Shown here in pieces: positions 7,989-58,759 of a stretch of 64,000 bases of DNA. The translations under genes and the position numbers were made by a program. The notes below the pieces were generated by a model. That model did no database searches and was not told where the DNA came from. It saw nothing but the letters and a program-made list of their open reading frames with translations. The stretch's first letter is position 1. The number at the start of each line of letters is the position of its first letter. Where the stretch lies: assembly GCA_036676985.1 (NCBI GenBank), contig JAKFBU010000006.1, positions 15,067 to 79,066 on the forward strand. The letters run 5' to 3'. Origin of the DNA: Candidatus Sericytochromatia bacterium (GTDB taxonomy: Bacteria; Cyanobacteriota; Sericytochromatia; S15B-MN24; UBA4093).

Positions 7989-8001
7989 GCGACCTCCTGC
8001 C

Positions 8002-8388: not shown

Positions 8389-8390
8389 CT

Positions 8391-8416
8391 CGAGCCCGCC
8401 GGATCCGGCGGGCTCG
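8391..8416. terminator. Hairpin between convergent genes
   Basis: CGAGCCCGCCGGATCCGGCGGGCTCG is a perfect palindrome. Confidence 0.6.
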
Positions 8417-8420
8417 CGGC

Positions 8421-27449: not shown

Positions 27450-27461
27450 CGGAGGGCCCTC

Positions 27462-29743: not shown

Positions 29744-29749
29744 CTCCCG

Positions 29750-30541
29750 CTAACCCAAGATCAACCCGACGTACCAGTTCCACAGCGCCGTGCCGGTGAA
29801 CAGGCTCGCGAGCGTTCCCACCACGAGGCTGGGACCGAACGGAAAGGGCTGGCTCTCCCCCTTGGCGCGGGCCTTGAGGGCAAGCCCCACCACCGATCCC
29901 GTGGTGAAGGCGATCATGAGGGCCACGGCGAGCCCCGAGGGCCCGAGCCATGCGCCCATCAGGGCGGCGAGCTTGGCGTCCCCGCGGCCCATGCCGGGCA
30001 CGCCCAGGGCCAACTCGCTCGCCCACTCGATGAAGCGGAAGAAGGCGTAGCCGCCCACCGCGGCGGCGACGTGCGGCAGCCAGGCGCCGGCGATGAGCCA
30101 CCCGAAGACGAGCCCGAGGGCGATGCCCGGCCAGGTCATCACGTCCAGGATGAGCATGGTGTCGATGTCGATCCAGAAGATGGCGACCAGGGCCGAGACC
30201 AGGAGCGCCTCGGCGAAGAAGCGCGGCGTGGGGCCCTCGCGCAGCATGAGGCCCAGCCACAGGAGGCCCGTCGTGAGCTCGACGACCGGGTAGCGCCAGG
30301 AGATGGGCTCCTGGCACGTGCGGCACTTGCCCCTGAGGGCCAGCCAGCTCAGGATGGGCAGGTTCTCGTACCAGTGGAGGGCCGTGGAGCAGTGCGGGCA
30401 GCGGGATCCCGGCCAGACGATCGACTCTTCACGGGGCAACCGGTAGATCACCACGTTGAGGAAGCTTCCGATCAAACACCCAAACACCAAGGCGACGCTC
30501 GCGAGGAACGCCGCTGGCAGCTGAGTTTCAACCATCGTCAT
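29750..30541 (-). CDS. pilD: Prepilin peptidase/N-methyltransferase
   Basis: GSFLNVVIYRLP, SRCPHC, GKCRTC, MGRGDAKL and PFGP motifs. Confidence 0.95.
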   Translation of the reverse strand: MTMVETQLPAAFLASVALVFGCLIGSFLNVVIYRLPREESIVWPGSRCPHCSTALHWYENLPILSWLALRGKCRTCQEPISWRYPVVELTTGLLWLGLMLREGPTPRFFAEALLVSALVAIFWIDIDTMLILDVMTWPGIALGLVFGWLIAGAWLPHVAAAVGGYAFFRFIEWASELALGVPGMGRGDAKLAALMGAWLGPSGLAVALMIAFTTGSVVGLALKARAKGESQPFPFGPSLVVGTLASLFTGTALWNWYVGLILG

Positions 30542-30579
30542 CTAGGTGCGCTTCCTTTGGTCGGCCCCAGAGGGGTCAA

Positions 30580-30605
30580 ACACCCCCTGTGGGGCGTCCT
30601 GAAAC
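30580..30605 (-). promoter_or_regulatory. Possible SigB/SigF-type promoter of pilD-pilMNOPQ
   Basis: GTTT-N16-GGGTGT on the minus strand. Confidence 0.35.
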
Positions 30606-30700
30606 GATTCTACCCACTCGCATGGTGAACCTATCACCCGAGGGTTGGACCATCATAGGCCCACCGCAGGCGGTCAAGCGGTGAGCGGCGCACATTTATG

Positions 30701-31360
30701 TCATTCCTGGATGGTGATCCCCAGGTCCTTGAGGGCGCGCCGGGCCATGCCCCGCACCCGGAGGTCGCCCTGCTCGTAGATCCGCTGCCAGGTGGCGATG
30801 GCCAGATCCTGCTTGTTGCCGCGAGCGTAGAGGCTCGCGGCCATGCGGCTGGCGCCGGGCGGGCAGTCGGGCAGGGCGGCGGCGGCCTCGAAGTGCTTGG
30901 CCGCGGCCAGGTAATCCTTGGCGTAGAGGAACTCGATGAAGCCGAGCTGGTAGGGGTACAGCCAGTTCCCGGGGTGGCGCTCCCAGCCCTTCTCCACCAG
31001 GCGGATCGCCTCGGGGATCCGTCGGGCGTCGGCGAGCATCCACGATCCGAATGTCGAAAGCTCGTGGAAGCGCGGATCGAAGTCGCTCGCGAGATCCAGG
31101 GCCTCGTAGAGCCCCCGGAAGTCCTGGGCCTCCGTGCTGTCGGTCGCGATCTGCTCGCCGTTGTGCACCAGGCTCTGGATCCAGAGCATGTCGGCGGCGA
31201 GGTTCTCGAAGTCCGTGACGAGCAGCTTCGCGGCTACCGGGTGAGGGACCACCAGCCGGGTGGGGTGGGCGGCCTGCAGGGTCGCGAGCTGGCCCAGGCA
31301 GAGGGCCTGGAGGCCCCAGAAGACCCCCGCGATCGCGAGCGCCAGGAGGATCTTGCGCAT
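30701..31360 (-). CDS. TPR-containing pilus-associated protein (PilG/XapA-like)
   Basis: ADMLWI, DFDPRF and WLYPYQLGF motifs; directly downstream of the ABC permease in the pilin locus. Confidence 0.65.
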   Translation of the reverse strand: MRKILLALAIAGVFWGLQALCLGQLATLQAAHPTRLVVPHPVAAKLLVTDFENLAADMLWIQSLVHNGEQIATDSTEAQDFRGLYEALDLASDFDPRFHELSTFGSWMLADARRIPEAIRLVEKGWERHPGNWLYPYQLGFIEFLYAKDYLAAAKHFEAAAALPDCPPGASRMAASLYARGNKQDLAIATWQRIYEQGDLRVRGMARRALKDLGITIQE

Positions 31361-31364
31361 GGCG

Positions 31365-32123
31365 CTAGAACTCCCGCCGCTCGAAGATGGCGGCGGCCGT
31401 CGCCAAGAGGGCGAACGTGTAGGCCAGTCCGTAGGCGATCGCCCAGATCCACTTGAGGGCGGGGATCGCCTCGCCGTAGACCACCTGGTTCTTGGCGTCG
31501 AAGGTGCTGAGGTTCGGCAGCAGGTAGTAGAGCGTCTCCACCACGCCCTTGACCGCGGGGCTCGCCTTGGCGCCCAGTGCCCTCAGGGCCTCGGTGTTGT
31601 GCCCGATGAGGTAGAGGCTGAAGGTGAGGACCATGCCGAGGATCGGCGAGGTGAAGCTCGAGAAGAAGACCGTGAGGGCCACCACGACCATGAGCTGGAG
31701 CCCGATGAGGCCGATGGCGCCGATGAGCGCCGGGGAGAAGCCGCCCTTGAGGGCCGCGAGGCCCAGGTAGCCCGCCCCCATGAGGGCCAGGAGGATCCAG
31801 AGCGTGAGGCCGAGGCCGAGGAACTTGCCCAGGAGGAAGACGGGGCGCGGCACGGGCTTGGTGAGCACCACGTAGACCGTGCGCTTGTCGACCTCCTTGT
31901 AGATCATGCTGGTGCCGACAAAGACGGCGATCGCCACCCCGAAGAGCTCGATGGCGCCCAGCCCCAGGTCGAGCACGATCTTCTGGTCCTGCCCGATGGT
32001 GAGCGTCCCGAACAGCAGGCTCGAGGCGATCATGACCAGGGCGAAGACCAAGAGGACGTAGAGGATGCGATCGCGGATGGTCTCGCGGAAGGTGTTGTGG
32101 GCGAGGTCCCAGAGGCGCGTCAT
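31365..32123 (-). CDS. ABC transporter permease (PilI/XapB-like)
   Basis: NTFRETIRDRILY, KEVDKRTVYVVLTKPV, FLLGKFLG and FERREF. Confidence 0.88.
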   Translation of the reverse strand: MTRLWDLAHNTFRETIRDRILYVLLVFALVMIASSLLFGTLTIGQDQKIVLDLGLGAIELFGVAIAVFVGTSMIYKEVDKRTVYVVLTKPVPRPVFLLGKFLGLGLTLWILLALMGAGYLGLAALKGGFSPALIGAIGLIGLQLMVVVALTVFFSSFTSPILGMVLTFSLYLIGHNTEALRALGAKASPAVKGVVETLYYLLPNLSTFDAKNQVVYGEAIPALKWIWAIAYGLAYTFALLATAAAIFERREF

Positions 32124-32860
32124 GCGTGCGCGCCTCCGACCAGCCGGATGAAGGCCTCTTCCAGGCTGCCCGTGCCCGCGACGTCCTGGATCCGGCCCGC
32201 GCCCACGAGCTTGCCCTGGGCCAGGATGCCGACGCGATCGCACAGGAGCTCCACGTCCGAGAGGATGTGGGTGTTGAAGAAGATGGTCTTGCCCTCGCGC
32301 TTGAGGTCCAGGATGAGCTCGCGCAGCTGGTGGCGGCCCACGGGATCCAGGCCGCTCATGGGCTCGTCCAGAAAGACGATCTCGGGATCGTTGACGAGCG
32401 CCTGGGCCACGCCGACCCGCTGCAGCATGCCCTTGGAGTACTTGCGCAGCTGGGTGTTGGCGGCATGGCTCATGCCGACGCGTTCCAGGTTCTTGGCGAC
32501 GCGCTCCTGCAGCTCCTTGCCGCCGAGCCCGAAGAGGCCCCCGCAGAACTCGAGGAACTCCTTGCCCGTCAGGTAGGTGTAGAAGTAGGGGTTTTCCGGC
32601 AGGTAGCCGATCCGGGCGCGGGTCTTGGTGTCGTCCGGCGTGGAGCCGAGGACGAGTGCGGTGCCGGAGGTGGGACGGATGAGGCCGAGCAAGATTTTCT
32701 GAAGCGTGGTCTTGCCCGCGCCGTTGGGGCCCAGGAGGCCAAACGTCTCACCCTCCGAGACCTGGAGGGTCGCCCCTTCGAGGGCCACCTTGGCAGGCTG
32801 ACCGACTTGCGGGGGGTAGACCTTGCCGAGGTTCTGGATGTCGACGACGATCCGGCTCAT
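32120..32860 (-). CDS. ABC transporter ATP-binding protein (PilH/XapD-like)
   Basis: Walker A GPNGAGKTT, YLPENPYFY, YSKGMLQR and LDEPMSGLDP. Confidence 0.93.
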   Translation of the reverse strand: MSRIVVDIQNLGKVYPPQVGQPAKVALEGATLQVSEGETFGLLGPNGAGKTTLQKILLGLIRPTSGTALVLGSTPDDTKTRARIGYLPENPYFYTYLTGKEFLEFCGGLFGLGGKELQERVAKNLERVGMSHAANTQLRKYSKGMLQRVGVAQALVNDPEIVFLDEPMSGLDPVGRHQLRELILDLKREGKTIFFNTHILSDVELLCDRVGILAQGKLVGAGRIQDVAGTGSLEEAFIRLVGGAHA

Positions 32861-32901
32861 GGTGATCTCCTTGGGGATGGGCGGTGATTCCAGCCCGTTG
32901 T

Positions 32902-32926
32902 ATACCCCCGTGGAGCCGCCCGTAAC
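32902..32926 (-). promoter_or_regulatory. SigB/SigF-type promoter of ABC module
   Basis: GTTA-N15-GGGTAT on the minus strand. Confidence 0.45.
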
Positions 32927-33006
32927 GTGGGCGCAGCCTTAGAGCACCTGCCCGAGCCGGGCATGTGCGGGCGTCGGCCGCGCGCGGGCGGCTGCTGGGT
33001 GGCGCG

Positions 33007-33552
33007 CTAGTGGTTCTTGACGTAGATGACCGTGACGGCGTTGTCGCCCCGCTTCCCGGTGCCCATCAGCTCGTAGAGCTCGTTGGCCGTGGAAGTGGTC
33101 GGCTGCCGGTAGCTGATGGCCCCGAAGTGGTCCACGGCCGTCGGGGTGACCATCTGGCCGGCCGCCAGCGCGACGGCGCCGGTGAGCGGGTTGCGGTTCT
33201 GCTGCGGGGCGGCGTTGGCGTCGGGGATGGCGATGTTCGCCGTCACGGCCTGCGTCACGGCCGTCCCCCACGGCGAGGTCGGATAGAAGGGCTGGTACAG
33301 GGACCCGTTCGCGACGACCGCCGGGTTGAGGCCCGCCGCGGTGGTCGGGTACCGTCCCGCCTGGTCGATGGAATAGCGCTCGAGCGCAACCTGCACGACG
33401 TGGACGTTGGCCTGGACCGCCGAGTTGCGGGCCTTGTCTCTTGCGCCTGCGAAGTTGGGGATGGCGATGGCGGCCAGGATCCCCATCACGACGACCACGA
33501 CCAGCAACTCGATGAGGGTGAAGCCTTGTTCACCGACGTTCCGTTTGGTCAT
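33007..33552 (-). CDS. Type IV pilin (paralog 1, most divergent)
   Basis: Class III signal QG|FTLIELLVVVVVMGILAAIAIP. Confidence 0.92.
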   Translation of the reverse strand: MTKRNVGEQGFTLIELLVVVVVMGILAAIAIPNFAGARDKARNSAVQANVHVVQVALERYSIDQAGRYPTTAAGLNPAVVANGSLYQPFYPTSPWGTAVTQAVTANIAIPDANAAPQQNRNPLTGAVALAAGQMVTPTAVDHFGAISYRQPTTSTANELYELMGTGKRGDNAVTVIYVKNH

Positions 33553-33565
33553 GCCTGCTCTTCCT

Positions 33566-33603
33566 AAAAAAGGCGCCGCAGGGAGGGAGGCCCCCCCTGC
33601 GGC
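33566..33603 (-). terminator. Intrinsic terminator between pilin 2 and pilin 1
   Basis: GCCGCAGGG...CCCTGCGGC hairpin followed by a T6 run on the minus strand. Confidence 0.6.
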
Positions 33604-33615
33604 TGGGTGCCTGAA

Positions 33616-34155
33616 TTAGTAGTTCTTGACGTAGATGACCTTGACGGCGTTGTTGCCCTGCTTGCCGGTGCCCATGAGCTCGTACTTCTCGTTGGCGTTG
33701 CCGCTGCGGCGGTAGCTGATGGCGCCGAAGTCGGTGATGGCCGCGCAGGCGGTACCCGAGCCGGCGGCGAGGGTGGCATCGCCGTCCGCGGGGTCGAGGT
33801 TGCCCGTGCCGCCGAGCTCGGCATCGGTCGCGGCAGCCGGAATGGCGATGTCGGCCGCGATGCCCTGCTGGGTGTTCCAGGGGGTGCGGGGGTAGGCGGC
33901 GAGGTAGGACGTGTTGCCGACGACGGCCGCAGCGCCCGACATGGCGGCGGGGAAGACGCTGGCGTTGTCGACCGCGTACTGCTCGACGGCCATCTGGACG
34001 TTGTGGGCGTTCGACTGGACGCCCGAGTTCTTCGCCTTGTCCTGGGCGCCCATGAAGTTGGGGACGGCGACCGAGGCCAGGATGCCGATGATGACGACGA
34101 CTACCAGCAGCTCGATGAGCGTGAAGCCGTCCTGCTTGGAAGGTTTGCGGATCAT
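33616..34155 (-). CDS. pilA: Type IV pilin (paralog 2)
   Basis: DG|FTLIELLVVVVIIGILASVAVP; has its own promoter and terminator. Confidence 0.9.
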   Translation of the reverse strand: MIRKPSKQDGFTLIELLVVVVIIGILASVAVPNFMGAQDKAKNSGVQSNAHNVQMAVEQYAVDNASVFPAAMSGAAAVVGNTSYLAAYPRTPWNTQQGIAADIAIPAAATDAELGGTGNLDPADGDATLAAGSGTACAAITDFGAISYRRSGNANEKYELMGTGKQGNNAVKVIYVKNY

Positions 34156-34225
34156 AATGTCCTCCGATGGAAGGGAAGGGAGTGTGAGGAGCCGGGCCTC
34201 GAGGTCCCGGGCGACCTACCTATGC

Positions 34226-34251
34226 CTTCCCGCTTGCTAGTCGGTTTAAAC
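34226..34251 (-). promoter_or_regulatory. SigB/SigF-type promoter of pilin 2
   Basis: GTTTAAAccgactagCAAGCGGGAAG; same layout as upstream of pilin 3. Confidence 0.6.
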
Positions 34252-34483
34252 GGTGCGCGGAAAAAATTTTTTCCCCGGCGCCCCCGGCCGGTCATCGGGC
34301 CCCGGAAAAGCGGGTCCTGGGGGGCTTTCGGTCGGATCCTAATCGTTTGCCAATCTTTCCTTAAAAAAGATCGATCGGGTGGTTCAGATTTCGTTACTTG
34401 CTTGCTATAATGGAGATCGGTAGCCCGTTCTGGGAGCCGCCTTGACAACCTACCCGCCCCGATCCCGAAAGGAAGGCCTTGCA

Positions 34484-34714
34484 ATGACGCATGTTTCCTC
34501 CCTGAGCGTCCACGGCGTGACGTTCGATCCCGTTTGCGGGGCCACGCTCGATCTGAGCGAGGCCGTCGGTCCGGTCATCTACCATGGCCAGCGCTTCCAC
34601 TTTTGCTCCCACCGTTGCCAGACCCACTTCTTCGTGAACCCGCCCAAGGATCTGCAGCGCGAGCACCGGGTGAAGATCGCCATGATGCGCACCCCCGCCG
34701 TGGCCTTCGCCTAA
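34484..34714 (+). CDS. YHS-domain small protein
   Basis: DPVCG...YHGQRFHFCSHRC...F..NP, with upstream TGcTATAAT and a downstream terminator. Confidence 0.85.
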   Translation: MTHVSSLSVHGVTFDPVCGATLDLSEAVGPVIYHGQRFHFCSHRCQTHFFVNPPKDLQREHRVKIAMMRTPAVAFA

Positions 34715-34731
34715 GCCTTCGATCCCGTCGA

Positions 34732-34803
34732 CCGCGTCCCCTTTTGGGGGCGCGGTTTTTTCTTGCCATGCAAAAGGCCGGGGGACGGATTCGTCCCCCG
34801 GCC
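34732..34803. terminator. Back-to-back intrinsic terminators (YHS gene +, pilin 3 -)
   Basis: CCGCGTCCCC-TTTT-GGGGGCGCGG followed by a T run, and AAAA-GGCCGGGGGACG..CGTCCCCCGGCC. Confidence 0.7.
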
Positions 34804-34817
34804 GAGCCGATCGAGGC

Positions 34818-35351
34818 TTAGAAGTTCTTGACGTAGATGACCTTGACGGCGTTGTTGCCCTGCTTGCCGCTGCCCATGAGCTCGTACTTCTCGTTGGCGT
34901 TGCCGCTGCGGCGGAAGCTGATGGCGCCGAAGTGGAGCGGGGTGGTGGGAACCACACCGCTGCCGGCCGCGAGCGTGGTGGTGCCGTCGTTGGGGTTGCG
35001 GTTGCCGGTGCCGCTCAGCAGGGCCTCGGTGGCGGCCACCGGGATGGCGATTTCAGCCGCCTGCTGGGTATTCCAGGGGGTGCGGGGGTAGGCGGCGAGG
35101 TAGGACGTGTTGCCGACGACGGCCGCAGCGCCCGTGATGGCGGCGGGGAAGACGCTGGCGTTGTCGACCGCGTACTGCTCGATGGCCATCTGGACGTTGT
35201 GGGCGTTCGACTGGACGCCCGAGTTCTTCGCCTTGTCCTGGGCGCCCATGAAGTTGGGGACGGCGACCGAGGCCAGGATACCGATGATGACGACGACTAC
35301 CAGCAGCTCGATGAGGGTGAAGCCGGACTGAGTGGATGGTTTGCGGGACAT
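34818..35351 (-). CDS. pilA: Type IV pilin (paralog 3)
   Basis: SG|FTLIELLVVVVIIGILASVAVP; near-identical to paralog 2 outside a central segment. Confidence 0.9.
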   Translation of the reverse strand: MSRKPSTQSGFTLIELLVVVVIIGILASVAVPNFMGAQDKAKNSGVQSNAHNVQMAIEQYAVDNASVFPAAITGAAAVVGNTSYLAAYPRTPWNTQQAAEIAIPVAATEALLSGTGNRNPNDGTTTLAAGSGVVPTTPLHFGAISFRRSGNANEKYELMGSGKQGNNAVKVIYVKNF

Positions 35352-35420
35352 GGGGTCCTCCATGGAAACGGGTTGGGGATGACGATAGCCGTTTCGGCAA
35401 ATAGTTTGATCACCCACTAC

Positions 35421-35642: not shown

Positions 35643-35701
35643 AGCATGCTAGCGTCGGTGGGCACATGCGCGACGCCGCTCGGGCGGCCAGGACGGGGAC
35701 G

Positions 35702-36796
35702 ATGTCCGGAGTCAACATTGGACGCCAAGTAGGGCAAGGCCCTGACATCCGCACTGGGGGCCAGGGTGGCTCTCAGGCGGCCTCGCGCGTCTCGGGCCCC
35801 ACGCTCGACCCCCTGCAGCAGGCCGCCCAGCAAAAGCCGGCGGGCCCCACCTACTTCGGCTATCACAACGACTCGTCGATCGCCGCTCGGCTGGCACAGC
35901 AGGGCATCGCTCCCAATGCCGTGAACCTGCGCGTCGCCCAGCAGATGCTGCGCTACGGCATCCCGCTCAGCGCGGACGCCCTCAACCAGTTCCGCCAGCT
36001 GTGGCAGGGCATGGGCTCGGCCTCCATGGTGGAGCTGGAGGCGCTCCTGGCCCTCTTCGCCCAGGGCGTGGAGCTCGCCCCCAAGAACCTCCAGGCCATG
36101 ACCCAGATGCTCTCGGGCGGCCCCATGAGCCACCTGATGGCGCAGCTTACCATGTCCTTGAAGAACCAGGCCGTCGGCGGGGCCCAGGTCCAGGAGCTCA
36201 AGACCCTCCTGAACGGCTTCTGGAAGCTCGGCAGCGGCCCGGAGCAGCTGGGCGCGGAGCTCGGGCAGTTCCAGCAGCTGTTCAAGAAGCTCGATCGTAC
36301 GCTCACTGCCCTGGATCCCCAGCGCACGCCGCCCGAGTTGATGAGCGACCTCGCGCAGCTCAAGGACCTCTTGCACGCCCAGCAGATGCTGGTCCGCAAC
36401 CCCAACACCTCGGTCTACGTGCCCTTCTACCAGTGGCGAGATCAGCAGCCCATGCCGGGCGAATTGCTGGTCGAGACCGACGACAACCCGAGCTTCCAGG
36501 CGGCGGGCTTCGCGCAGGTGACGCTCGCGGTGGATACCCGCAACCTCGGCCGCATGACCATCGACTTCACCACCGTCCGGGGCCACCTCTCGGTCAAGCT
36601 GGAGGTCCAGGACCAGGCCACCAAGCAGTTCCTCGAGCGGGGGCTGCCCGACCTGCGCCACCGGCTCACCTTCCGCACGCCCTACCAGGTGGCGACCATC
36701 CAGTGCTCGGAGACGGGGCAGACCCGGGCCATCAGCGTCCTCTTGCCGCGCCGGCGGGACCTCCGCAAGCTCGGCCGCGCCATCGGGGTGATCTAG
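35702..36796 (+). CDS. FliK-like (hook-length control C-terminal domain) protein
   Basis: C-terminal VTLAVDTRNLGRMTIDF..LSVKLEV..FLERGLPDLRHRL resembles the FliK T3S4 domain; followed by an FlhB-C-like gene. Confidence 0.65.
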   Translation: MSGVNIGRQVGQGPDIRTGGQGGSQAASRVSGPTLDPLQQAAQQKPAGPTYFGYHNDSSIAARLAQQGIAPNAVNLRVAQQMLRYGIPLSADALNQFRQLWQGMGSASMVELEALLALFAQGVELAPKNLQAMTQMLSGGPMSHLMAQLTMSLKNQAVGGAQVQELKTLLNGFWKLGSGPEQLGAELGQFQQLFKKLDRTLTALDPQRTPPELMSDLAQLKDLLHAQQMLVRNPNTSVYVPFYQWRDQQPMPGELLVETDDNPSFQAAGFAQVTLAVDTRNLGRMTIDFTTVRGHLSVKLEVQDQATKQFLERGLPDLRHRLTFRTPYQVATIQCSETGQTRAISVLLPRRRDLRKLGRAIGVI

Positions 36797-37768: not shown

Positions 37769-38536
37769 ATGATCCACGCCATTTGGACGGCCGCGACGGG
37801 CATGCAGGCCCAGCAGATGCGCATCGACACGATCGCCAACAACCTTTCAAATGTGAACACCACGAGCTACAAGCGCTCGACGGTGGACTTCCAGGATCTC
37901 CTCTACCAGACGATCAACCAGCCGGGCACCGATGCCGCGGGCGTGCAGATCGGTCTGGGCGTGCGACCGGTCGCCGTCACCAAGCTCTACGAGCAGGGCA
38001 ACCTCCAGATCACCAACAACCCGCTGGACGTCGCCATCGACGGAGACGGCTTCTTCCAGGTCACCCAGGCCAACGGACAGGTCGCCTACACCCGCGACGG
38101 CTCCTTCAAGATGGACCAGGCGGGTCGTCTGGTCACCTCGACCGGAGCGGTACTCGAGCCGCCCGTGACCGTCCCGCCCGGCACCCAGGGCCTCACGATC
38201 CGCGCCGACGGCACGGTGTTCGGCACGACGCCCGGGGCCACCGAGCAGTCGATCCTGGGCAACATTCTGCTCACGACCTTCGTCAATCCGGCTGGTCTCC
38301 AGTCGCTGGGCAACAACCTCATGATCGAGACCTCGGCCTCGGGAGCGCCCCAGCAGCTGCAGCCGACCCTTGACGGAGCGGGTAAGCTCAGGCAAGGTGC
38401 ATTGGAGGCCTCCAACGTCGAGTTGGTGCGGGAGATGGTCATGATGATCGCCACCCAGAAGGCCTACGACACCAGCTCCAAGGCCATCATGGTCTCGGAC
38501 AAGATGATGGAGACCGCCAACCAGCTGCAGCGGTAA
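37769..38536 (+). CDS. flgG: Flagellar distal rod protein FlgG
   Basis: WTAATGMQAQQ, FQDLLYQ, QIGLGV, YTRDGSF and LEASNVELV motifs. Confidence 0.92.
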   Translation: MIHAIWTAATGMQAQQMRIDTIANNLSNVNTTSYKRSTVDFQDLLYQTINQPGTDAAGVQIGLGVRPVAVTKLYEQGNLQITNNPLDVAIDGDGFFQVTQANGQVAYTRDGSFKMDQAGRLVTSTGAVLEPPVTVPPGTQGLTIRADGTVFGTTPGATEQSILGNILLTTFVNPAGLQSLGNNLMIETSASGAPQQLQPTLDGAGKLRQGALEASNVELVREMVMMIATQKAYDTSSKAIMVSDKMMETANQLQR

Positions 38537-38547
38537 CCGGAGGACCC

Positions 38548-39288
38548 TTGGCTCTCGCCCTTTCCCGAATCCCCATGCTCGCCGCAGGACTGGCCTTCGT
38601 GCTGGTCCTGTGGGCCCCGGGCGCCCTCGCGGCGTCCTTGCGGGAGCAGGACGTGGTCGACGTCGTCGCGTCCCACGTGGCCCAGCGCTATCAAGTTGGG
38701 CGCGATCGCGTCGAGATCGATTGGGAGGGGCCGGGGCTCACGACGCTGTTGCGGGCGCCGCTCCCCAAGGGCACGGTGGACCTTGCGATCACGGGGCAGC
38801 CGAGGCTCATCGGACGGGTGGCGATTCCCCTGGAGCTCTCGGTCGACGGCAAGCGCCAGCGCACCATCTATCCGCGCCTGTCCATCAAGGTCTGGCAGGA
38901 CGTGTGGGTAGCCGAGGACCGGATCCGGCGCGGGGAGCTCTTCGAGCCGGCCATGGCCAAGGCCGCCCGGCGAAGCCTCGAGACGGTGATGGGGGCGCCC
39001 CCGTCGAGCCTCAAGGGCCTCACGGGAGCGACGGCCAAGCGGGAGATTCCCGCGGGCAGCGTGCTGGTGGCCGAGATGTTCGCCATGCCGCCCCTGGTCA
39101 AGAACGGCACCATGGTGACGGTGCGGCTCGTCAGCGGGGAGCTGACCATCGTCACGCGCGGGCAGGCCATCGGCAACGGGACGTACGGTCAGCTCATCAA
39201 GGTCACCAACCCGGACACTCACAAGGACTACGTCGCGCGGGTGATCGGCAACGACGAGGTCGAGATCACCCTCGAGGAGGCGCCCTAA
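38548..39288 (+). CDS. flgA: P-ring formation chaperone FlgA
   Basis: SAF domain with PPLVKNG and GQAIGNGTYGQLIKVTN; lies between flgG and flgH. Confidence 0.85.
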   Translation: MALALSRIPMLAAGLAFVLVLWAPGALAASLREQDVVDVVASHVAQRYQVGRDRVEIDWEGPGLTTLLRAPLPKGTVDLAITGQPRLIGRVAIPLELSVDGKRQRTIYPRLSIKVWQDVWVAEDRIRRGELFEPAMAKAARRSLETVMGAPPSSLKGLTGATAKREIPAGSVLVAEMFAMPPLVKNGTMVTVRLVSGELTIVTRGQAIGNGTYGQLIKVTNPDTHKDYVARVIGNDEVEITLEEAP

Positions 39289-41037: not shown

Positions 41038-41391
41038 ATGGAGATCAACGGCCTGCCGCTGCCGCCTCGCCTGCCCAGCACTCCGGCTTCCTTGCTCTCG
41101 GAGATCGACGGGACGTTACCTTCGGCCCGTCGCGAGGTACAACAAGGAGGAATACGGGAGGCGGCGGAGAGTTTCGCCTCTTACCTGTACGCCCAGGTGT
41201 TCTCCCAGATGCGGCCCGAGGATTCCCAGGAGGAAGGCGGGTTGTTTTCCGGGGAGCAGTCCGGCATGTTCATGGACTTCTTCGATCAGGCTCTCGGCAA
41301 GCAGTACGCCTCTCACGGCGGCAACGTGCTGGTGGAGCAGCTGGTCAAGCAGTTGAGCCAGGGCAAGGGCGAGCAGGGCAAGGTGGACTAG
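41038..41391 (+). CDS. flgJ: FlgJ rod-binding domain protein (no muramidase)
   Basis: REAAESF..YAQVFSQMR..GGLFSG..MFMDFFD..LVKQL; follows flgI. Confidence 0.7.
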   Translation: MEINGLPLPPRLPSTPASLLSEIDGTLPSARREVQQGGIREAAESFASYLYAQVFSQMRPEDSQEEGGLFSGEQSGMFMDFFDQALGKQYASHGGNVLVEQLVKQLSQGKGEQGKVD

Positions 41392-42595: not shown

Positions 42596-43015
42596 GTGAT
42601 CAGTCGCGAAGTCCGTGGGCTCGAGCGTGCGATGGACGCCCTGTCGGCGCGTTTCTCCACCCAGTCCAACAATATCGCCAACGTCAACACGCCCGGCTAC
42701 GCCCGGCAGGACGTCCACTTCGAGGACGCCCTGGCGACGGCCATCGACTCCGAGCCGTCCGCCGGCATGGCGACGGCCCAGAGCCCGCTGAGCGCCTTGA
42801 TCGGCTCGCCCAATCAGAACCCGGGCGACCTCCTGGAGCTCTTCAACCCGACCGCCACGGTTGCCAAGGGCAGCGCCCAGCGCGTCGACGGCAACGGCAC
42901 CACCCTCGAGTACGAGATGAGCCAGATGGTCCAGACGGCCCAGAAGTTCAACGCCGTCGCCACCCAGATTGCCACCCAGTACCGCACCTTCAAGTACATC
43001 ACGGACCAGAAGTAG
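42596..43015 (+). CDS. flgB: Flagellar proximal rod protein FlgB
   Basis: SNNIANVNTPGY, DVHFE and RVDGNGTTLEYEM motifs. Confidence 0.9.
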   Translation: MISREVRGLERAMDALSARFSTQSNNIANVNTPGYARQDVHFEDALATAIDSEPSAGMATAQSPLSALIGSPNQNPGDLLELFNPTATVAKGSAQRVDGNGTTLEYEMSQMVQTAQKFNAVATQIATQYRTFKYITDQK

Positions 43016-43617: not shown

Positions 43618-44004
43618 ATGCTCGTCAACAACCCGATGCTCAACAACTTCCAGCGCACGGCACCCGGCCTCGGCGGCGTGATGCCCGAGTTCCCGTCCGT
43701 CGACTTCTCGATCGGCAACAACCCCGAGTTCGGCGAGGCCACCCTCGACGGGTTCGACCAGGCGCAGACCACCAACAATGGCATGAGCTTCGGCGACCTG
43801 CTCAACCAGGCCATCGAGGGCATCTCCGCGCAGGACCAGCACGCCGTCAACGTCGGCCTCGACTTCGCCCTGGGCCGCAACAACGTGGACGTGCACCAGG
43901 TGATGATCGAGCAGGCCAAGGCCGAGTCCGAGCTGCACCTGATGTCGGCCGTCACCAACAAGGTGGCCTCCGGCTACCAGACGCTCATGAACATGCAGAT
44001 CTAG
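43618..44004 (+). CDS. fliE: Flagellar hook-basal body protein FliE
   Basis: SFGDLL, DVHQVMI and NKVASGYQTLMNMQI motifs. Confidence 0.9.
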   Translation: MLVNNPMLNNFQRTAPGLGGVMPEFPSVDFSIGNNPEFGEATLDGFDQAQTTNNGMSFGDLLNQAIEGISAQDQHAVNVGLDFALGRNNVDVHQVMIEQAKAESELHLMSAVTNKVASGYQTLMNMQI

Positions 44005-44023: not shown

Positions 44024-45955
44024 ATGCTCGACTTCCTGAACCGCTTTCCCCCACCCGTGCGCATCGGCATCCTGGCCGGTGTGCCCATTCTGCTGATCGT
44101 CATCACCCTGTTCATCGGCATGGCCATCGGAGGCGGCGGCAAGAAGCAGACCGCCGAGGAGAACGTCAACAAGAACGACATCATCCTCTTCCGGCGCATG
44201 TCCCAGCAGTCGGCGGGCGAGGCGGGCGCGAAGCTCGAGGAAGAGCGCATTCCCTTCAAGCTGGTCGAGGACGGCACGGCCATCTCGGTCGCCAAGGACA
44301 AGGCCGACAAGGCCCGCGTGGCCCTCGCCGCGGCCGGCCTGCCCAAGGACGGCGACCCCGGCTTCAGCCTCTTCGACAAGAGCGACTTCATCTCCACCGA
44401 CTTCGACAAGAAGGTCAAGCTGCTGCGCGCCATGAACGGCGAGATCAAGCGCCTGGTCAAGATGGTCGACGGCGTCGAGGACGCTGCCGCGCTGGTCACC
44501 ATGCCGGAGGACACGCTCTTCCAGACCGAGAAGAAGCCCGTCACGGCCGCGGTCATGGTCAAGATGCAGCCCAAGCGCACCATGTCGCCGTCCCAGGTGG
44601 ACGGCCTCACGCACCTCATCGCCTCGTCGGTGCCGGGCCTCACGACCGACAACGTCACCATCACCGACGACCTGGGCAACCTCCTGACTCAGGGCATGGA
44701 GTCCAACGCCGGGAACAAGGAGGACCGCATGATCTCGCGCGTCCTCAACATGCAGATGGGCCTCCAGCGCCAGAAGGAGCAGGAAATCGAGCAGAAGCTC
44801 ACCACCCTCCTCGACAAGGTCGTGGGCTCGGGCAAGGCCGTGGTGCGCGTGAGCGTCGAGCTGGACTTCAACAAGCGGCTCGTCCGCAACGTCCTCAAGG
44901 CGCCCGTCACCAACAACGGCGAGCCGGTGGCCGTCAACAAGACCGAGCAGACCGAGACGGTCAAGGGCGAGGGCGACGGCGGCGTGCCGGGCGCCGCGTC
45001 CAACGTGCCGACCTATCCCGCCATCCCCGCGGGCGGCACGGGCGGCAAGGAAGTCACCAAGAAGAACCTCAAGGAGCAGCCCGCGTTCAACGAGGAGACG
45101 CAGCTCGTCCAGCCGTCCAGCGGCAACATCAAGCGCATGTCCATCGCGGTCCTGGTCCCCGACACCCTGAAGCAGGAGAGCGCGGACCGGCTGCGCCTCA
45201 TCATCGCCGCGGCCGCCGGTGCGGATGCCGCCCGCCGGGACCAGGTCTCGGTCGAGCGGGTGCGCTTCGACACCAGCCTCGCCGACAGCCTCAAGGACCA
45301 GCTCGAGAAGGACAAGGCGGAGTCCGCCAAGAAGACCGCCAAGGGCAAGTCCGTCAGCTGGGCGATCGTCTGGTGGATCGGCGGCGGATTGCTGCTGCTC
45401 TTCCTCTTGCTCGCCCTCCTGCGCCGGGCCACCCGCAAGGAGGCCAATCCCCTCGACACGCTCACCGCGAGCCTCGGGGGCGAGGCGGACGCGCTGCCGG
45501 CCTTCGATCAGCAGGCGCTCGGCGCCTTCGATCAGGGGGCCTTCCCGGGCCTCGAGCAGGGCGGCTTCATGCCGCCCGGCATGGACCAGTTCGGCCAGCA
45601 GGGTTACGCTCAGCCTGACTACGGCCAGCAGGCCTACGCTCAGCCGGGCTATGACCAGGGTGGCTACGATCAGGGCATGAGCCAGCCCCAGCCGGGCGGC
45701 GGCCAGTTCGACTTCCTCTACGAGGTCACGCCCGACGCCGTGGCGACGGCCTTCGAGGGCGAGCGACCGGCGACCATCGCGGGCGTGCTCGCGAGCGTGG
45801 ATCCCAGCTACGCCGAGCAGGTCCTCCAGTACCTGGATCCGAGCATCCAGGAGGACGTCTTCAACCGCGTGAACTCGGGGGCGAACCTGCCCTCGATGAC
45901 CGCCCGCATGGCGGCCCAGAACCTCCGTCGCAAGCTCGGCGCTGGCGTGAGCTAG
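44024..45955 (+). CDS. fliF: MS-ring protein FliF with C-terminal FliG middle-domain-like fusion
   Basis: FliF motifs GFSLFD, LIASSVPGL, NVTITD, GVPGAASN and IKRMSIAV, then a second TM, a low-complexity linker, and FDFL..ERPATIA..LDP..QEDVF..LRRKL. Confidence 0.9.
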   Translation: MLDFLNRFPPPVRIGILAGVPILLIVITLFIGMAIGGGGKKQTAEENVNKNDIILFRRMSQQSAGEAGAKLEEERIPFKLVEDGTAISVAKDKADKARVALAAAGLPKDGDPGFSLFDKSDFISTDFDKKVKLLRAMNGEIKRLVKMVDGVEDAAALVTMPEDTLFQTEKKPVTAAVMVKMQPKRTMSPSQVDGLTHLIASSVPGLTTDNVTITDDLGNLLTQGMESNAGNKEDRMISRVLNMQMGLQRQKEQEIEQKLTTLLDKVVGSGKAVVRVSVELDFNKRLVRNVLKAPVTNNGEPVAVNKTEQTETVKGEGDGGVPGAASNVPTYPAIPAGGTGGKEVTKKNLKEQPAFNEETQLVQPSSGNIKRMSIAVLVPDTLKQESADRLRLIIAAAAGADAARRDQVSVERVRFDTSLADSLKDQLEKDKAESAKKTAKGKSVSWAIVWWIGGGLLLLFLLLALLRRATRKEANPLDTLTASLGGEADALPAFDQQALGAFDQGAFPGLEQGGFMPPGMDQFGQQGYAQPDYGQQAYAQPGYDQGGYDQGMSQPQPGGGQFDFLYEVTPDAVATAFEGERPATIAGVLASVDPSYAEQVLQYLDPSIQEDVFNRVNSGANLPSMTARMAAQNLRRKLGAGVS

Positions 45956-45964
45956 AGGACTTAG

Positions 45965-48085
45965 ATGGTCGGGGCCTTAGGAGGACAGGGAGGCAAGGGC
46001 ATCCCCCTGCGCGACTTCATCATCGCCGGGGTGATGGTCGCGATCCTGGGCATCCTGTTCCTGCCGATCCCGACCTGGATGCTCGACCTGCTGATCGTCC
46101 TGAACATCACCATGTCGGTCATCATCGTGTTCGTCGCCCTCTACATCGTCAAGCCGCTGGAGTTCGCATCCTTCCCGTCGTTGCTGCTCATCACAGCGCT
46201 TTACCGACTGGCGCTGTCGGTGGCGACCTCCCGATCGATCCTGCTCCATGCCGAGGCGGGCCACGTGGTCGAGACCATGGCCGAGTTCGTCATGGGCGGC
46301 AACTACATCGTCGGCATCATCATCTTCATCATCCTCATCATCGTGAACTTCATCGTCATCACCGAGGGCTCGAAGCGTATCGCCGAGGTCGCGGCCCGCT
46401 TCACCCTGGACGCCATGCCCGGTAAGCAGATGTCCATCGACGCGGACCTGGCGGCCGGCCTCATCGACGGCGAGCAGGCGAAGAAGCGGCGCGAGGAGCT
46501 GGTCCAGGAGGCCAACTTCTTCGGCTCCATGGACGGTGCCAACAAGTTCGTGAAGGGCGACGTCATCGCCTCGATCATCCTCATCATCGTCAACATCGTG
46601 GGCGGCATCCTGATCGGCATCCTCATGAAGAAGATGGACGTCATGACCGCCCTCGCCAAGTACGCCATCCTGACGGTCGGCGATGGCCTGGTCGCCCTCA
46701 TTCCCGGCATCCTCATCTCCATCTCGGCGGGTCTGGTCAGCTCGCGCTCGTCTTCGGACCAGAACCTCGCGGCGGACCTCAAGAAACAGGTCTTCACCAA
46801 CCCCAAGAGCATGGGCGTCGCCGCGGCCGTCATCTTCCTCATCGCCTGGGTGCCGGGCTTCCCCAAGATGTTCTTCATCCCCATCGCCATCGGCATGGGC
46901 ATCGCGGCCTTCCTGACGGTCCGCAAGTCGATGATGCCCCAGGGCATGGCCGACGACTACGGCATGCCCATGGACGACATGATGGACGACTACCAGCCGG
47001 AGTCGGAGGAGGACCTCAAGAACCCCGAGAACGTCATGAAGATGCTCGGCGTCCCGCCCCTCACCCTCGAGTTGGGGCTGGACCTGGTGCCGTTGGTCGA
47101 TCCGGGCCTCGGCGGCGAGCTGATGGACCGCGTGGTTCCCATGCGCGTGAACATCGCCCTGGACCTGGGCTTCGTCATGCCGGGCATCCAGTTCAAGGAC
47201 AACCTCAACCTGCGCCCCAACGCCTACCAGATCCTGGTCAAGGGCAACCAGGTGGCCATGGGCGAGCTGCTCGTCGGCTACATGCTCGCCATCCAGCAGA
47301 GCACGACCGACACGAGCCAGGAGCTGGTCGGCTTCCCCACCACGGATCCAGCCTTCGGCAAGCCCGCGGTCTGGGTCGCGGGCGCCGAGGCCCAGCGTGC
47401 AGCGCAGCTCGGCTACCTCATCCAGGACCCCACCAACGTCCTCACGGCTCACATGGAGCACACCGTGCGCTCGTACGCGCACGAGATCCTGAGCCGCGAG
47501 GAGGTCCAGATGATGCTGAACCGCCTCAAGGAGAAGGCCCCCGTCACGGTCAAGGACCTGGTCCCCGAGATCCTCTCGCTGTCGGAGGTCCAGCGGATCC
47601 TGCAGGGCCTCATCCGAGAGGGCGTCAGCATCCGCGATCTGGCGACCATCCTGGAGCGCCTGGCCGACTACGGCAAGATGACCAAGGACACGTTCCTCCT
47701 GGTCGAGATGATCCGCCAGCAGCTCTCGCGCCAGATCTGCGCCTCGCTCGCGACCGAGGAGCTCGTCATCGAGGTCATCACCCTCGATCCGGGCGTGGAG
47801 AACACCATCCAGGGCTCGATCACCAACACCCCGCTCGGCCCGCAGGCGGCGGTCAACCCGCAGATCATGCAGCTCATCCTCGCGCGCTTGGCCGCCGTCC
47901 ACCAGGAGGCCGTCGCGCGCGGCTCCAACCCTGCGCTCTTGACCAACCCGACCATCCGGCCGCACGTCAAGAACCTCATCGAGCGGAACTTCCCCACCAT
48001 GTCCGTCATCTCCTACGCGGAGATTAATGCCAAGTTTAAGGTGCAGTCCGTCGGCCAGGTCTCCATCGCCGTCGGTGTGACGTAG
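45965..48085 (+). CDS. flhA: Flagellar export gate protein FlhA
   Basis: FPSLLL, RIAEVAARFTLDAMPGKQMSIDADL, GSMDGANKFVKGD and EGVSIRDL motifs. Confidence 0.97.
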   Translation: MVGALGGQGGKGIPLRDFIIAGVMVAILGILFLPIPTWMLDLLIVLNITMSVIIVFVALYIVKPLEFASFPSLLLITALYRLALSVATSRSILLHAEAGHVVETMAEFVMGGNYIVGIIIFIILIIVNFIVITEGSKRIAEVAARFTLDAMPGKQMSIDADLAAGLIDGEQAKKRREELVQEANFFGSMDGANKFVKGDVIASIILIIVNIVGGILIGILMKKMDVMTALAKYAILTVGDGLVALIPGILISISAGLVSSRSSSDQNLAADLKKQVFTNPKSMGVAAAVIFLIAWVPGFPKMFFIPIAIGMGIAAFLTVRKSMMPQGMADDYGMPMDDMMDDYQPESEEDLKNPENVMKMLGVPPLTLELGLDLVPLVDPGLGGELMDRVVPMRVNIALDLGFVMPGIQFKDNLNLRPNAYQILVKGNQVAMGELLVGYMLAIQQSTTDTSQELVGFPTTDPAFGKPAVWVAGAEAQRAAQLGYLIQDPTNVLTAHMEHTVRSYAHEILSREEVQMMLNRLKEKAPVTVKDLVPEILSLSEVQRILQGLIREGVSIRDLATILERLADYGKMTKDTFLLVEMIRQQLSRQICASLATEELVIEVITLDPGVENTIQGSITNTPLGPQAAVNPQIMQLILARLAAVHQEAVARGSNPALLTNPTIRPHVKNLIERNFPTMSVISYAEINAKFKVQSVGQVSIAVGVT

Positions 48086-48542: not shown

Positions 48543-48637
48543 GCGCGCATGACGAGGGGGCGCTTGTGGGGTAGAAAAGGGGTGGTAGGTCCCTTATGAT
48601 GGGACCGACACGGCTCCAGTGGTCCGAAGGGAAGCGA

Positions 48638-49996
48638 ATGACGGCGATTCCGCCCCACGACATTGCCCAGATCCTGATCGGTCGAGAGGCCAGGAAGGCC
48701 GAGCGCCGCATCAACCAGGTGCGGGCCATGCTGCTCCTCGTCGGCCTGTTCGTGGTGGTCCCCATCCGGCTGCTGACCTATGGCTTGACGGGCGGATCGG
48801 GAAACCTGGCGGCGACCGTCGCCGTCCTGGTCCTCGGCCTCTTGGCCAGCCTCGCCTTGGGCTGGAAGATGCGGGATCCGGAGTTCCCCGAAGGCCTGGC
48901 GATCGTCGGCATCGTCCTGGACTTCGGCCTCGTGGCGGGACTCATCCTCTCGCAGGTGCTGGCCGGACTCTCGAACGCCGGCGAGCTGTCGCACCGGATC
49001 CACGAGCTCTTCCTGCCGCTCGGCTATGCCATGAACGCCCTCTCGGGCATGCGCCTGAGCCATCGCCAGGTCTTGCTCAGCGGTTCTTTGTGCGCGGGGT
49101 TGCTGGTCGAGGCGACCCTGTTCGACCTCTTCCTGTTCCGGTTGCCCTACTATGCGGCGACGACGGTGATTGCCGTCTGCATGGTGGCCGTGACGACCAT
49201 GGCCTCGTACTTCATGGTCTCCAAGGCCCGGGCGCTCCTGGCCGAGGCGGCCGCAATGGAGTCGGAGGCCATGCGGGTGCGTGGCGTCCTGTCGCGCTAC
49301 GTCTCTCAGCCGGTGGCCGAGACGGTGCTCCAGGAGGACCTGGCCCTCTCGGTGGGACGTCGCCAGCGCGTGACGGTCCTCTTCTCGGACATCCGCGGCT
49401 TCACGAAGATGTCCGAGCGCATGCCGCCGGAAGACGTCGTCTCGGTCCTCAACGCCTACTTCTCGCGGATGGTGCGGGTCGTGTTCGCCTACGACGGCAT
49501 GCTGGACAAGTACATCGGCGACGGCATGATGGTCGTCTTCGGCGCGCCCGTCCAGCATCCGGACCATGCCATGCGGGCCGTTCAGGCGGCCCTGCGCATG
49601 CGCGAGGAGCTCGAGCTCCTAAACGAGGAGCGGGCGGCGCGCGGGGAGGCTGCCCTGCAGATCGGGATCGGCATCCACACCGGCGAGGCGGTCATTGGGA
49701 ACATCGGGACCGAGCAGCGCCTCGACTACACGGCCATCGGCGACACGGTCAACACGGCGAGCCGCATCGAGAGCCTCACCAAGGAGCACGGCACGGACAT
49801 CCTCCTGAGCAGCGAAACGTTCGCGGCGGTCATGGGGGCCGTGGAGGCCGAGGCGGTGCCCAACGTGCAGATCCGCGGCAAGACCATGAACCTGGACCTC
49901 TTCAAGCTCGCGGGCCTGAAGCCCGAGGTGTCGGAGGCCGATCGGGTCACCAGCCGCCTGCCCGCCGCGCGCACGCCCACCAAGTTCCTCTGGTAG
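48638..49996 (+). CDS. Membrane-bound class III adenylate/guanylate cyclase
   Basis: About 6 TM helices; FSDIRGFT, DKYIGDG, GIGIHTG and YTAIGDTVNTASRIE (Lys/Thr specificity residues point to ATP). Confidence 0.93.
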   Translation: MTAIPPHDIAQILIGREARKAERRINQVRAMLLLVGLFVVVPIRLLTYGLTGGSGNLAATVAVLVLGLLASLALGWKMRDPEFPEGLAIVGIVLDFGLVAGLILSQVLAGLSNAGELSHRIHELFLPLGYAMNALSGMRLSHRQVLLSGSLCAGLLVEATLFDLFLFRLPYYAATTVIAVCMVAVTTMASYFMVSKARALLAEAAAMESEAMRVRGVLSRYVSQPVAETVLQEDLALSVGRRQRVTVLFSDIRGFTKMSERMPPEDVVSVLNAYFSRMVRVVFAYDGMLDKYIGDGMMVVFGAPVQHPDHAMRAVQAALRMREELELLNEERAARGEAALQIGIGIHTGEAVIGNIGTEQRLDYTAIGDTVNTASRIESLTKEHGTDILLSSETFAAVMGAVEAEAVPNVQIRGKTMNLDLFKLAGLKPEVSEADRVTSRLPAARTPTKFLW

Positions 49997-58075: not shown

Positions 58076-58759
58076 GTGAGCACCGTGGCCTTTTTGAAGC
58101 AGACGCTCCTGTTCCAGGACCTCGAGCCCGACGAGCTGGAGGCGATCGCCTCCATCGCTCGCAAGCGCCAGGTTCCCAAGGGCTCGATCCTCTTCTACGT
58201 CGACGACCCCGGCAACGCGTGCTACATCGTGGTGGAAGGCAAGGTCAAGATCGTCGTCAACTCGGGCGACGGCCGCGAGCACATCCTGGGGATCCTCGGT
58301 CCCTCGGACCTGTTCGGCGAGATGTCCCTGATCGACGGCGAGGCCCGCTCGGCGACGGCGATCGCCGTCGAGGAGACGGTCGTCCTCACCATCCAGCGCG
58401 AGGAGTTCGTCCGCCTCTTGGCCGATCACCCGGGCATCGCCATGAAGCTCCTGACGGTCCTCTCGCGCCGCCTGCGGCTCACCGACGCGCACGTGGAGAG
58501 CCTGGCGTTCCTCTCGGCTCCCGGCCGGGTGGCCCGGCTCCTCATCCAGCTCGCCGCCGAGTCGGGCGAGAAGACGGACGAGGGCAAGCCGGCGTTCTCC
58601 ACCCGCATGACCCGCCAGGAGATGGCGAACCTCACGGGCACCAGCCGGGAGACCTTCACGCGGGTGCTCATGGATTACCAGGACCGCGGGCTCGTCAGCA
58701 TCGATCGCAACCTCTTCGTGCTGAACAACGAGCCCAAGCTCAAGGAACTCGTCGTCTAA
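58076..58759 (+). CDS. Crp/Fnr-family (cAMP-binding) transcriptional regulator
   Basis: cNMP pocket FGEMSLIDGEARSA; HTH TRQEMANLTGTSRETFTR. Confidence 0.93.
   Translation: MSTVAFLKQTLLFQDLEPDELEAIASIARKRQVPKGSILFYVDDPGNACYIVVEGKVKIVVNSGDGREHILGILGPSDLFGEMSLIDGEARSATAIAVEETVVLTIQREEFVRLLADHPGIAMKLLTVLSRRLRLTDAHVESLAFLSAPGRVARLLIQLAAESGEKTDEGKPAFSTRMTRQEMANLTGTSRETFTRVLMDYQDRGLVSIDRNLFVLNNEPKLKELVV

Follow-up and report, generated by a model that had tools for sequence, protein, structure and literature searches.

A FliF protein that ends in the FliG middle domain belongs to a second flagellar gene set in Sericytochromatia

What does a flagellar MS ring gain when each of its subunits carries a piece of FliG? 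The question is raised by a gene in the 64,000-nucleotide (nt) stretch of DNA analysed here (the window; all coordinates are positions in it), which comes from a draft genome of the class Sericytochromatia (G000; 79 contigs, listed as 100% complete). At 44024..45955 on the forward strand, one open reading frame (ORF) encodes a FliF homologue of 643 amino acids (aa) that continues well past its second transmembrane (TM) segment. A preliminary description of the window, made from the letters alone, had read this continuation as a natural fusion to the middle domain of FliG. The gene, here called fliF2::fliG_M, is divided as follows; A1 is a 19-sequence full-length alignment of homologues, and identities are mean pairwise values.

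44024..45955, + strand, stop codon included: fliF2::fliG_M, ORF with Pfam and NCBIfam matches, third-position GC (GC3) 0.95
44063..44131, + strand: TM1, residues 14-36, hydrophobic stretch predicted by eye from the translation
44183..44689, + strand: YscJ_FliF domain (RBM1-2), residues 54-222, Pfam PF01514, 177.2 bits against a cut-off of 24.4
44810..45268, + strand: YscJ_FliF_C domain (RBM3/collar), residues 263-415, Pfam PF08345, 89.2 bits against a cut-off of 23.8
45353..45421, + strand: TM2, residues 444-466, hydrophobic stretch predicted by eye from the translation
45434..45523, + strand: conserved juxtamembrane segment, residues 471-500, identity 0.53 in A1
45524..45700, + strand: variable G/Q/P/Y-rich tether, residues 501-559, identity 0.34
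45701..45943, + strand: FliG middle (ARM_M) domain, residues 560-640, from Pfam FliG_M, a profile match to 1lkv, AlphaFold2 and Foldseek

The protein scored 243.7 against the NCBIfam fliF equivalog (TIGR00206; cut-off 129.75), and the GC3 of its gene is similar to that of neighbouring genes, with normal codon usage. Pfam FliG_M (PF14841) matched residues 570-639 with 37.9 bits (cut-off 25, E 2e-9), and the family search that had been proposed as a check on the domain was thereby passed. No Pfam match at E<=1 was found in the fusion protein to FliG_N (PF14842) or to FliG_C (PF01706), which holds the torque helix, in agreement with the preliminary description. The NCBIfam fliG equivalog (TIGR00207) reached 25.9, below its cut-off of 226.7, with residues 561-617 covering model positions 111-167 of 338 only. 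The protein stops 3 residues past the FliG_M domain; reading of the junction placed the TAG stop codon at 45953-45955, followed by the 9-nt spacer already described and the ATG of flhA at 45965. Between TM2 and the domain, P476 and P492 of the juxtamembrane segment are invariant and A498 is nearly invariant in A1, and the 59 residues of the tether include 14 G, 13 Q and 7 P. Across the 19 homologues, tether length ranges from 36 to 61 aa and the distance from TM2 to the domain from 64 to 92 residues.

Profile and fold comparisons show that the C-terminal domain of FliF2 is the FliG middle domain. A profile of A2, which joins the window's domain with the domains from 20 relatives (21 sequences), found solved FliG middle domains, the best being 1lkv (E 1.1e-12). 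AlphaFold2 run on A2 gave a six-helix model (mean predicted local distance difference test, pLDDT, 87.1) for which Foldseek ranked FliG chains first. The top match was 4fq0_C (template modelling (TM) score 0.74/0.83, root-mean-square deviation (rmsd) 2.0 Å over 79 columns, probability 1.00), the FliG_M crystallised with FliM (PDB 4fq0). The best Foldseek E-value was 3.9e-3 and none reached 0.001, the domain being small. The FliF_C:FliG_N co-fold 5tdy came only 31st, with a TM score of 0.47 against 0.74 for FliG_M.

In all 19 homologues the domain is 81 aa long, without insertions or deletions, and its mean pairwise identity, 0.62, equals that of the RBM1-2 ring domain. Because the domain is fixed in length and as conserved as the ring domain, the fusion is more than chance and the domain is probably under selection. 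The alignment with 1lkv sets the E of the EHPQ motif and the later R against residues of the fusion domain; at these positions every sequence of A1 has E580 and R615, and in A2 both the E and the aligned R are nearly invariant. In the window protein the EHPQR site reads E-R-P-A...R, with H and Q replaced, and in some families P becomes L; the earlier reading of ERPA in place of EHPQ was correct by alignment with solved FliG_M domains.

Misassembly does not explain the fusion. In another sample, a single contig of 2910 nt covers 45300-46100 with one difference, contigs of other studies bridge both TM2 to linker and linker to domain, and no joints across the fusion region were reported in contigs of other samples or studies, so the assembly error that had been named as a possible refutation was not borne out. 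Conservation among relatives, which had been put forward as a further check, was extensive: a single open frame of 603-669 aa was found in 40 of 41 related genomes; in the remaining one, G001, the contig ends within the gene. Sampling of the whole phylum showed the domain in 43 of the 46 further members of the class and in none of 104 genomes from other families.

In a sequence search, 30 of 88 FliF-like clusters had the three-domain architecture; those with names are labelled only 'FliF' and originate from Sericytochromatia-type metagenome-assembled genomes. A scan of one genome per species returned five rows outside the class that seemed to span the whole query (Nitrospinota, Chloroflexota, Anaerolineae, Syntrophaceae and Actinomycetes), and all five were rejected as separate fliF and fliG frames. 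The three Sericytochromatia-type loci checked that reach the C-terminal domain (L087, L099 and L112) are single frames. When the domain profile was searched against 1.84 billion representatives, 3188 matches were obtained at E<=0.001. The top 15, all with at least 104 bits, comprised 6 full-length fusions of 600-650 aa, 7 fragments matched at the C terminus and 2 FlhA-C-like proteins containing FliG_M-like repeats; next came three giant multi-repeat proteins, and then ordinary FliGs at 72 bits or less. No chlamydial sequence stood out among the best 150 of the 3188 matches.

The genome holds two flagellar gene sets, and the fusion is the FliF of the second. System 1, on contigs C26 and C50, comprises flgB, flgC, fliF1 (534 aa, without FliG_M), fliG1 (337 aa, with N, M and C domains), fliH, fliI, fliJ, fliK and flgE; motA, motB, fliL, fliM, fliY/N, fliO, fliP, fliQ, fliR and flhB; che genes, flhA1, a PilZ protein gene and fliA1; and flgF, flgG, flgJ, flgM, flgN, flgK, flgL, fliW, csrA, flhF and flhG. 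On C26 an operon runs from fliF1 through fliG1, fliH, fliI, fliJ and fliK on to motA, and this contig also holds fliM, fliN/Y, fliPQR, flhB, flhA1 and fliA1. That the fusion might be a modified copy of the sole FliF was rejected, since fliF1 exists and the fusion is its paralogue in system 2. Likewise the organism does not lack FliG, as had been supposed: canonical fliG1, with motAB and fliM/N, lies on C26, and a second FliG-bearing protein, FliG2, is encoded beside motA2/motB2 on C41. A complete fliG with motor genes elsewhere, which had been named as a point that would count against the fusion's significance, therefore does exist in the organism; these genes accompany their own ordinary FliF.

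The window contains the following part of system 2 in addition to the fusion gene.

35666..36796, + strand: fliK-like hook-length protein, Pfam Flg_hook 49 bits
37003..37740, + strand: flgF2, Pfam rod domains
37769..38536, + strand: flgG2, Pfam rod domains
38548..39288, + strand: flgA, Pfam ChapFlgA 77.1 bits
39288..39887, + strand: flgH (L-ring), start approximate, internal start of the frame; the syntenic gene in genome G030 has Pfam FlgH 137.8 bits
39900..41024, + strand: flgI (P-ring), the sole genome copy found, Pfam FlgI 395.3 bits, single tblastn and family match
41038..41391, + strand: flgJ-like rod-binding protein, Pfam Rod-binding 31.5 bits
41428..42159, + strand: fliA2-like sigma factor, Pfam Sigma70 regions 2 and 4, equivalent position in G030
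42596..43015, + strand: flgB2, Pfam Flg_bb_rod, paralogue on C26
43093..43500, + strand: flgC2, Pfam Flg_bbr_C and Flg_bb_rod, C26 paralogue 48% identical
43618..44004, + strand: fliE2, Pfam FliE 72.3 bits
45965..48085, + strand: flhA2, export gate, Pfam FHIPEP 787.6 bits, gene order also in G030

The set continues on C30 with flgD2, flgE2, a FliM-like gene (fliM2), the gene of a 461-aa SpoA-domain protein, fliN2, fliP2, fliQ2 and fliR2, and on C4 with flhB2, fliH2 and fliI2. System 2 thus has its own export gate, ATPase, rod, P/L rings and hook; equivalent blocks are present in G030, where the order flgB-flgC-fliE-fliF::G_M-flhA is kept at ~27% GC. FlgI, FlgK and FlgL were found in one copy each in G000, FlgK and FlgL adjoining system-1 genes. 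At least two FliF matches were found in 36 of the 41 genomes.

In our judgement there is slightly better than an even chance that in system 2 the tethered ARM_M takes the place of free FliG in linking the MS ring to FliM, with one such adaptor for each FliF subunit. FliF2 is the MS-ring protein of a second flagellar-type basal body and type III export system found class-wide, and its presumed cytoplasmic tail after TM2 consists of the conserved juxtamembrane segment, a flexible Q/G/P/Y-rich tether and the 81-residue ARM_M. Each subunit would bring its own covalent adaptor, which would supersede both free FliG and the usual co-fold of FliF tail and FliG_N, and would dock a divergent FliM2, together with FliN2 and the SpoA protein, beneath the MS ring. 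The fusion cannot itself receive MotAB torque because FliG_C is missing; in families f1 and f4, G000 included, a FliF-RBM3::FliG protein beside motA2/motB2 may supply the torque function. The preliminary description had proposed a self-polymerising scaffold that could engage neither stators nor a normal C-ring. Of this, the part on stators holds, as there is no torque helix without FliG_C. Exclusion from a C-ring is doubtful because FliG_M is the FliM-binding domain in published structures (PMC7355467) and system 2 encodes a FliM-like protein and FliN. Self-polymerisation found no support in the analysis.

Comparison with known systems shows one natural precedent. In Chlamydiaceae, a FliF of ~330 aa without RBM3 is fused to a FliG-M-like domain and has been proposed to contact a FliM/SctQ-type protein (Bergeron 2016, PMC4768692). 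Both proteins have FliG M homology after TM2 and neither has FliG_N or FliG_C. The chlamydial protein is shortened, whereas the present one is a full-length FliF of 643 aa with RBM1-3, in another phylum and accompanied by genes for rod, P/L rings, hook, gate, ATPase and FliM/FliN; the likeness is one of shared architecture, set against that paper's description of the chlamydial protein. A Salmonella FliF-FliG deletion fusion without most of FliG_N forms C rings and is motile (PMC7355467), and engineered FliF-FliG fusions of Salmonella and Vibrio are treated in PMC7355467, PMC10941966 and PMC11481574. These constructs share the covalent FliF-FliG link with the natural protein and show that rings can still assemble with it, and the Salmonella deletion effectively ties FliG_M to FliF. 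Because such fusions assemble C rings and rotate, a direct FliF-FliG_M link is mechanically workable. The engineered proteins are laboratory constructs that keep FliG_C and rotate, whereas the natural protein stops after ARM_M and reaches it through a long low-complexity tether. The co-fold of the FliF C-terminal tail with FliG_N (5tdy) provides a one-to-one link between MS ring and switch complex with a FliG_M-like architecture, according to the same account (PMC7355467). It is like the fusion in connecting the two structures and unlike it in being non-covalent and made with FliG_N, the fusion domain being closer to FliG_M in sequence and fold.

In lineages without FliG_C, the fusion would work like the SctD-SctK-SctQ link of the injectisome. 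This is a torque-less connection between the inner-membrane ring and a FliM/FliN-type sorting platform. We know of no homology of SctK or of the SctD cytoplasmic domain to FliG_M, and, unlike the injectisome, system 2 retains flagellar rod, P/L ring and hook genes.

The predicted partner FliM2 is a 308-aa protein encoded on C30 with a SpoA (FliMN_C) domain at its end. A profile of six FliM2 orthologues matched solved FliM middle domains (4fq0_B, E 2.5e-5), the G030 orthologue passes the Pfam FliM cut-off (30 against 27 bits), and each of the 5 genomes tested, the 3 of family f7 among them, has FliM2. In the alignment, FliM1 has an N-terminal LSQSEIDALL, which we take to be the CheY-binding peptide, and GGPG (GGXG), whereas the six FliM2 sequences have neither. 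Complex prediction with FliM2 residues 55-228 and the FliF2 C-terminal domain gave scores of 0.52, 0.53 and 0.51, and one control gave 0.50. The SpoA/FliN-domain protein between fliM2 and fliN2 (461 aa, domain at the C terminus; C30, L028:11059-12441, minus strand) has a counterpart of 674 aa in G030 (L159:6436-8457, minus strand).

Family f7 (G030, in 3 contigs and listed as 93% complete; G036, 98%; G040, 75%) has the fusion as its only FliF, each genome holding one copy in the long form. No FliG_C over the cut-off was found in the 3 genomes (Pfam, E<=0.1), in which the fusion is the only FliG_M over the cut-off, and Flagellin_N and FlgK_D1 were each found in 0 of 3 (Pfam, E<=0.001). Retained are FliM2 (3 of 3), FlgI (2 of 3), eight rod/hook-type matches per genome and one MotAB pair, and the three blocks of system-2 genes in G030 keep the gene order of G000 despite the low GC. 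As FliG_C, flagellin and FlgK were not found there, the f7 machine is probably not a conventional propeller, and the torque-less idea stays alive for this family, with its fusion FliF and no detectable FliG_C. A hidden FliG by the G030 stator was sought by hmmsearch with the A2 profile and by phmmer with FliG1 and FliG2. The targets were the 1707-, 403- and 491-aa neighbours of MotAB, a 475-aa frame with a 17-bit FliG_C match and a 987-aa G000 protein; nothing significant was found, and the 475-aa frame contained 0 Pfam families. The 1707-aa protein (G030, L158:2785-7905, + strand) and the 987-aa protein (G000, L008:4653-7613, + strand) are both encoded directly upstream of stator-linked genes; neither has any Pfam family, and BLASTP showed no similarity between them.

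Several points weigh against replacement of FliG by the tethered domain. The core of the FliM_M-FliG_M interface is formed by the G-rich loop of FliM and the EHPQR loop of FliG (PMC7355467). This canonical contact appears to be altered on both sides in system 2, because FliM2 is without GGXG and the fusion has ERPA instead of EHPQ. The TM topology and the cytoplasmic side of the FliF2 tail are presumed from homology to FliF. FliG proteins that include FliG_C are also encoded in G000 and most relatives, and a free FliG could therefore still serve system 2. In f7, a MotAB pair is kept with no evident rotor partner; the absences there come from draft metagenome-assembled genomes searched with Pfam models, which a very divergent flagellin, FlgK or FliG would escape, and G036 is also without an FlgI match, so that such gaps do occur.

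The presence of these other FliG proteins bears on an alternative that we regard as possible, though on the unlikely side: that the tethered ARM_M does not replace FliG and instead stacks on ARM_C of a separate FliG-bearing protein, forming a hybrid rotor. The partner would be the RBM3::FliG protein of C41 in f1 and f4, an orphan soluble FliG in f6, or FliG1, and system 2 would be an ordinary rotary flagellum sharing FlgK, FlgL and flagellin with system 1. The single FlgI, FlgK and FlgL of G000 fit such sharing of parts. FliG2 (653 aa; ~643 aa over C41, L008:7857-9785, + strand) adjoins FlgO-like, motA2 and motB2 genes. It starts with a signal or TM segment and a periplasmic domain; a TM helix then leads to a weak FliG_N, to FliG_M and to FliG_C (65.9 bits). 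The model of its periplasmic part, helix-strand-strand-helix-strand with a disordered P/Q-rich insert (pLDDT 86-91 in the structured blocks, 63.9 overall), resembles the RBM3/S-ring region of FliF (8z5v_A, Z 14.4, rmsd 2.2 over 95 residues; 6scn_A, Z 14.0; 8z4d_1, Z 12.6), the next row of the structure search after the FliF RBM3 matches having Z 7.9. FliG2 is therefore a FliF(RBM3+TM)::FliG fusion, a second natural kind in the same genome, which could enter or abut the MS ring. BLASTP found no similarity between FliG2 and the FliF2 fusion.

Full-length FliG2 orthologues were found only in families f1 and f4 (G000 included), and a second complete FliG in G028 (f6). The distribution of the extra FliG therefore does not match that of the FliF2 fusion: in family f3 (G011), which has the fusion, the canonical FliG is the only one, no FliG_C was detected in f7, which has the fusion as well, and the second FliG of f6 is an orphan unlinked to flagellar genes. 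A hybrid rotor is thus plausible in f1, f4 and f6, and f3 and f7 do not favour it. Further natural FliF-FliG fusions among the domain-profile matches are P0116 and P0192 (~640 aa), which combine YscJ_FliF (RBM1-2) with FliG_M and FliG_C; the alignment of FliG2 with P0192 is limited to the FliG M-C part.

It is improbable that the tethered FliG_M is no structural adaptor and acts as an insulator or regulator, blocking the FliM/FliG-binding site on FliF2 rings or titrating a partner, and so preventing cross-assembly of the co-resident systems or serving as a brake. Two paralogous systems in most of the genomes would call for such specificity; the last 96 aa of FliF1 gave weak matches to solved FliF C-terminal peptides (E 0.16 and 0.6), whereas residues 473-559 of FliF2 had no match among PDB sequences, these peptides included. 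In both paralogues, the match to TIGR00206 stops at about position 475 of the 555 in the model. The fusion is, however, equally conserved in f7, where a single system leaves nothing to insulate. An artefact or relic, whether a mis-joined assembly, a gene call that runs from fliF on into what is left of a fliG, or a gene in decay, is extremely unlikely: fliF and fliG are usually adjacent, so that a frameshift or mis-join in a draft of many contigs could mimic a fusion, but the spanning contigs of other samples, the single frames in nearly all relatives, the strong conservation of the domain and the normal codon usage all speak against it.

A motility-loss stage has been proposed between flagellum and injectisome. 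That system 2 is an envelope-spanning, non-rotating machine derived from the flagellum, with the FliF::FliG_M fusion marking that step, we regard as rather doubtful. If it were so, rod, P/L rings, hook-type proteins and the FliM/FliN platform would have been kept, and the FliG torque domain, CheY control and filament lost; f7 lineages would use the system for secretion or as a surface structure, and would offer a living analogue of the motility-loss stage. These lineages are a natural test of a flagellar basal body without torque, which bears on the origin of non-flagellar type III systems.

FliF::FliG_M occurs across Sericytochromatia, which are non-photosynthetic relatives of cyanobacteria, the arrangement having been reported previously only in Chlamydia. 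A full-text search, with subscription journals and supplements outside its reach, did not find the fusion or a dual flagellar system described in the class. The single published precedent, a reduced chlamydial protein whose role is unknown, is extended here to a full-length FliF in a complete basal-body gene set, with coupling of the MS ring made covalent, cut down to the FliM-binding module and apparently selected across a whole class. Together, the FliF2 fusion and the RBM3::FliG fusion in one genome point to a motor or export platform with a cytoplasmic ring largely tied to the membrane.

FliG_M-like domains also occur in other settings. Among the domain-profile matches, P0090 (778 aa) and P0101 (525 aa) are FlhA-C-terminal-like and then carry repeated FliG_M-like domains, the last of which closely resembles the FliF2 tail of family f3; both begin inside the FHIPEP model and may be partial. 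P0102 (7269 aa), P0103 (2142 aa) and P0105 (2175 aa) are giants with 8-15 MgtE_N/FliG_M-like repeats, and a PAN domain is also present in P0103 and P0105. A stand-alone gene resembling the FlhA cytoplasmic domain lies on C19 of G000 (L033, ~7950-8900, minus strand) and is 32% identical to FlhA2 residues 348-566; it is without the gate domain, and its translation has no FliG_M repeats. In G030, FliO and FliP are fused in one 413-aa protein (L159:4774-6012, minus strand), and the fliP2 match of G000 sits in a 662-aa open frame.

Just upstream of the flagellar block, the window contains a type IV pilus cluster on the minus strand (26625-35417) with pilM, pilN, pilO, a prepilin peptidase gene, three N-methyl pilin-like genes and an ABC transporter. 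Just downstream of flhA2 lies a gene for a membrane adenylate/guanylate cyclase (48596-49996, + strand), separated from it by a 95-aa ORF with no family above the cut-off. A Crp-family regulator that binds cyclic nucleotide monophosphates (cNMP) is encoded 8 kb beyond the cyclase (58076-58759, + strand), and the two may place system 2 under cyclic-nucleotide control.

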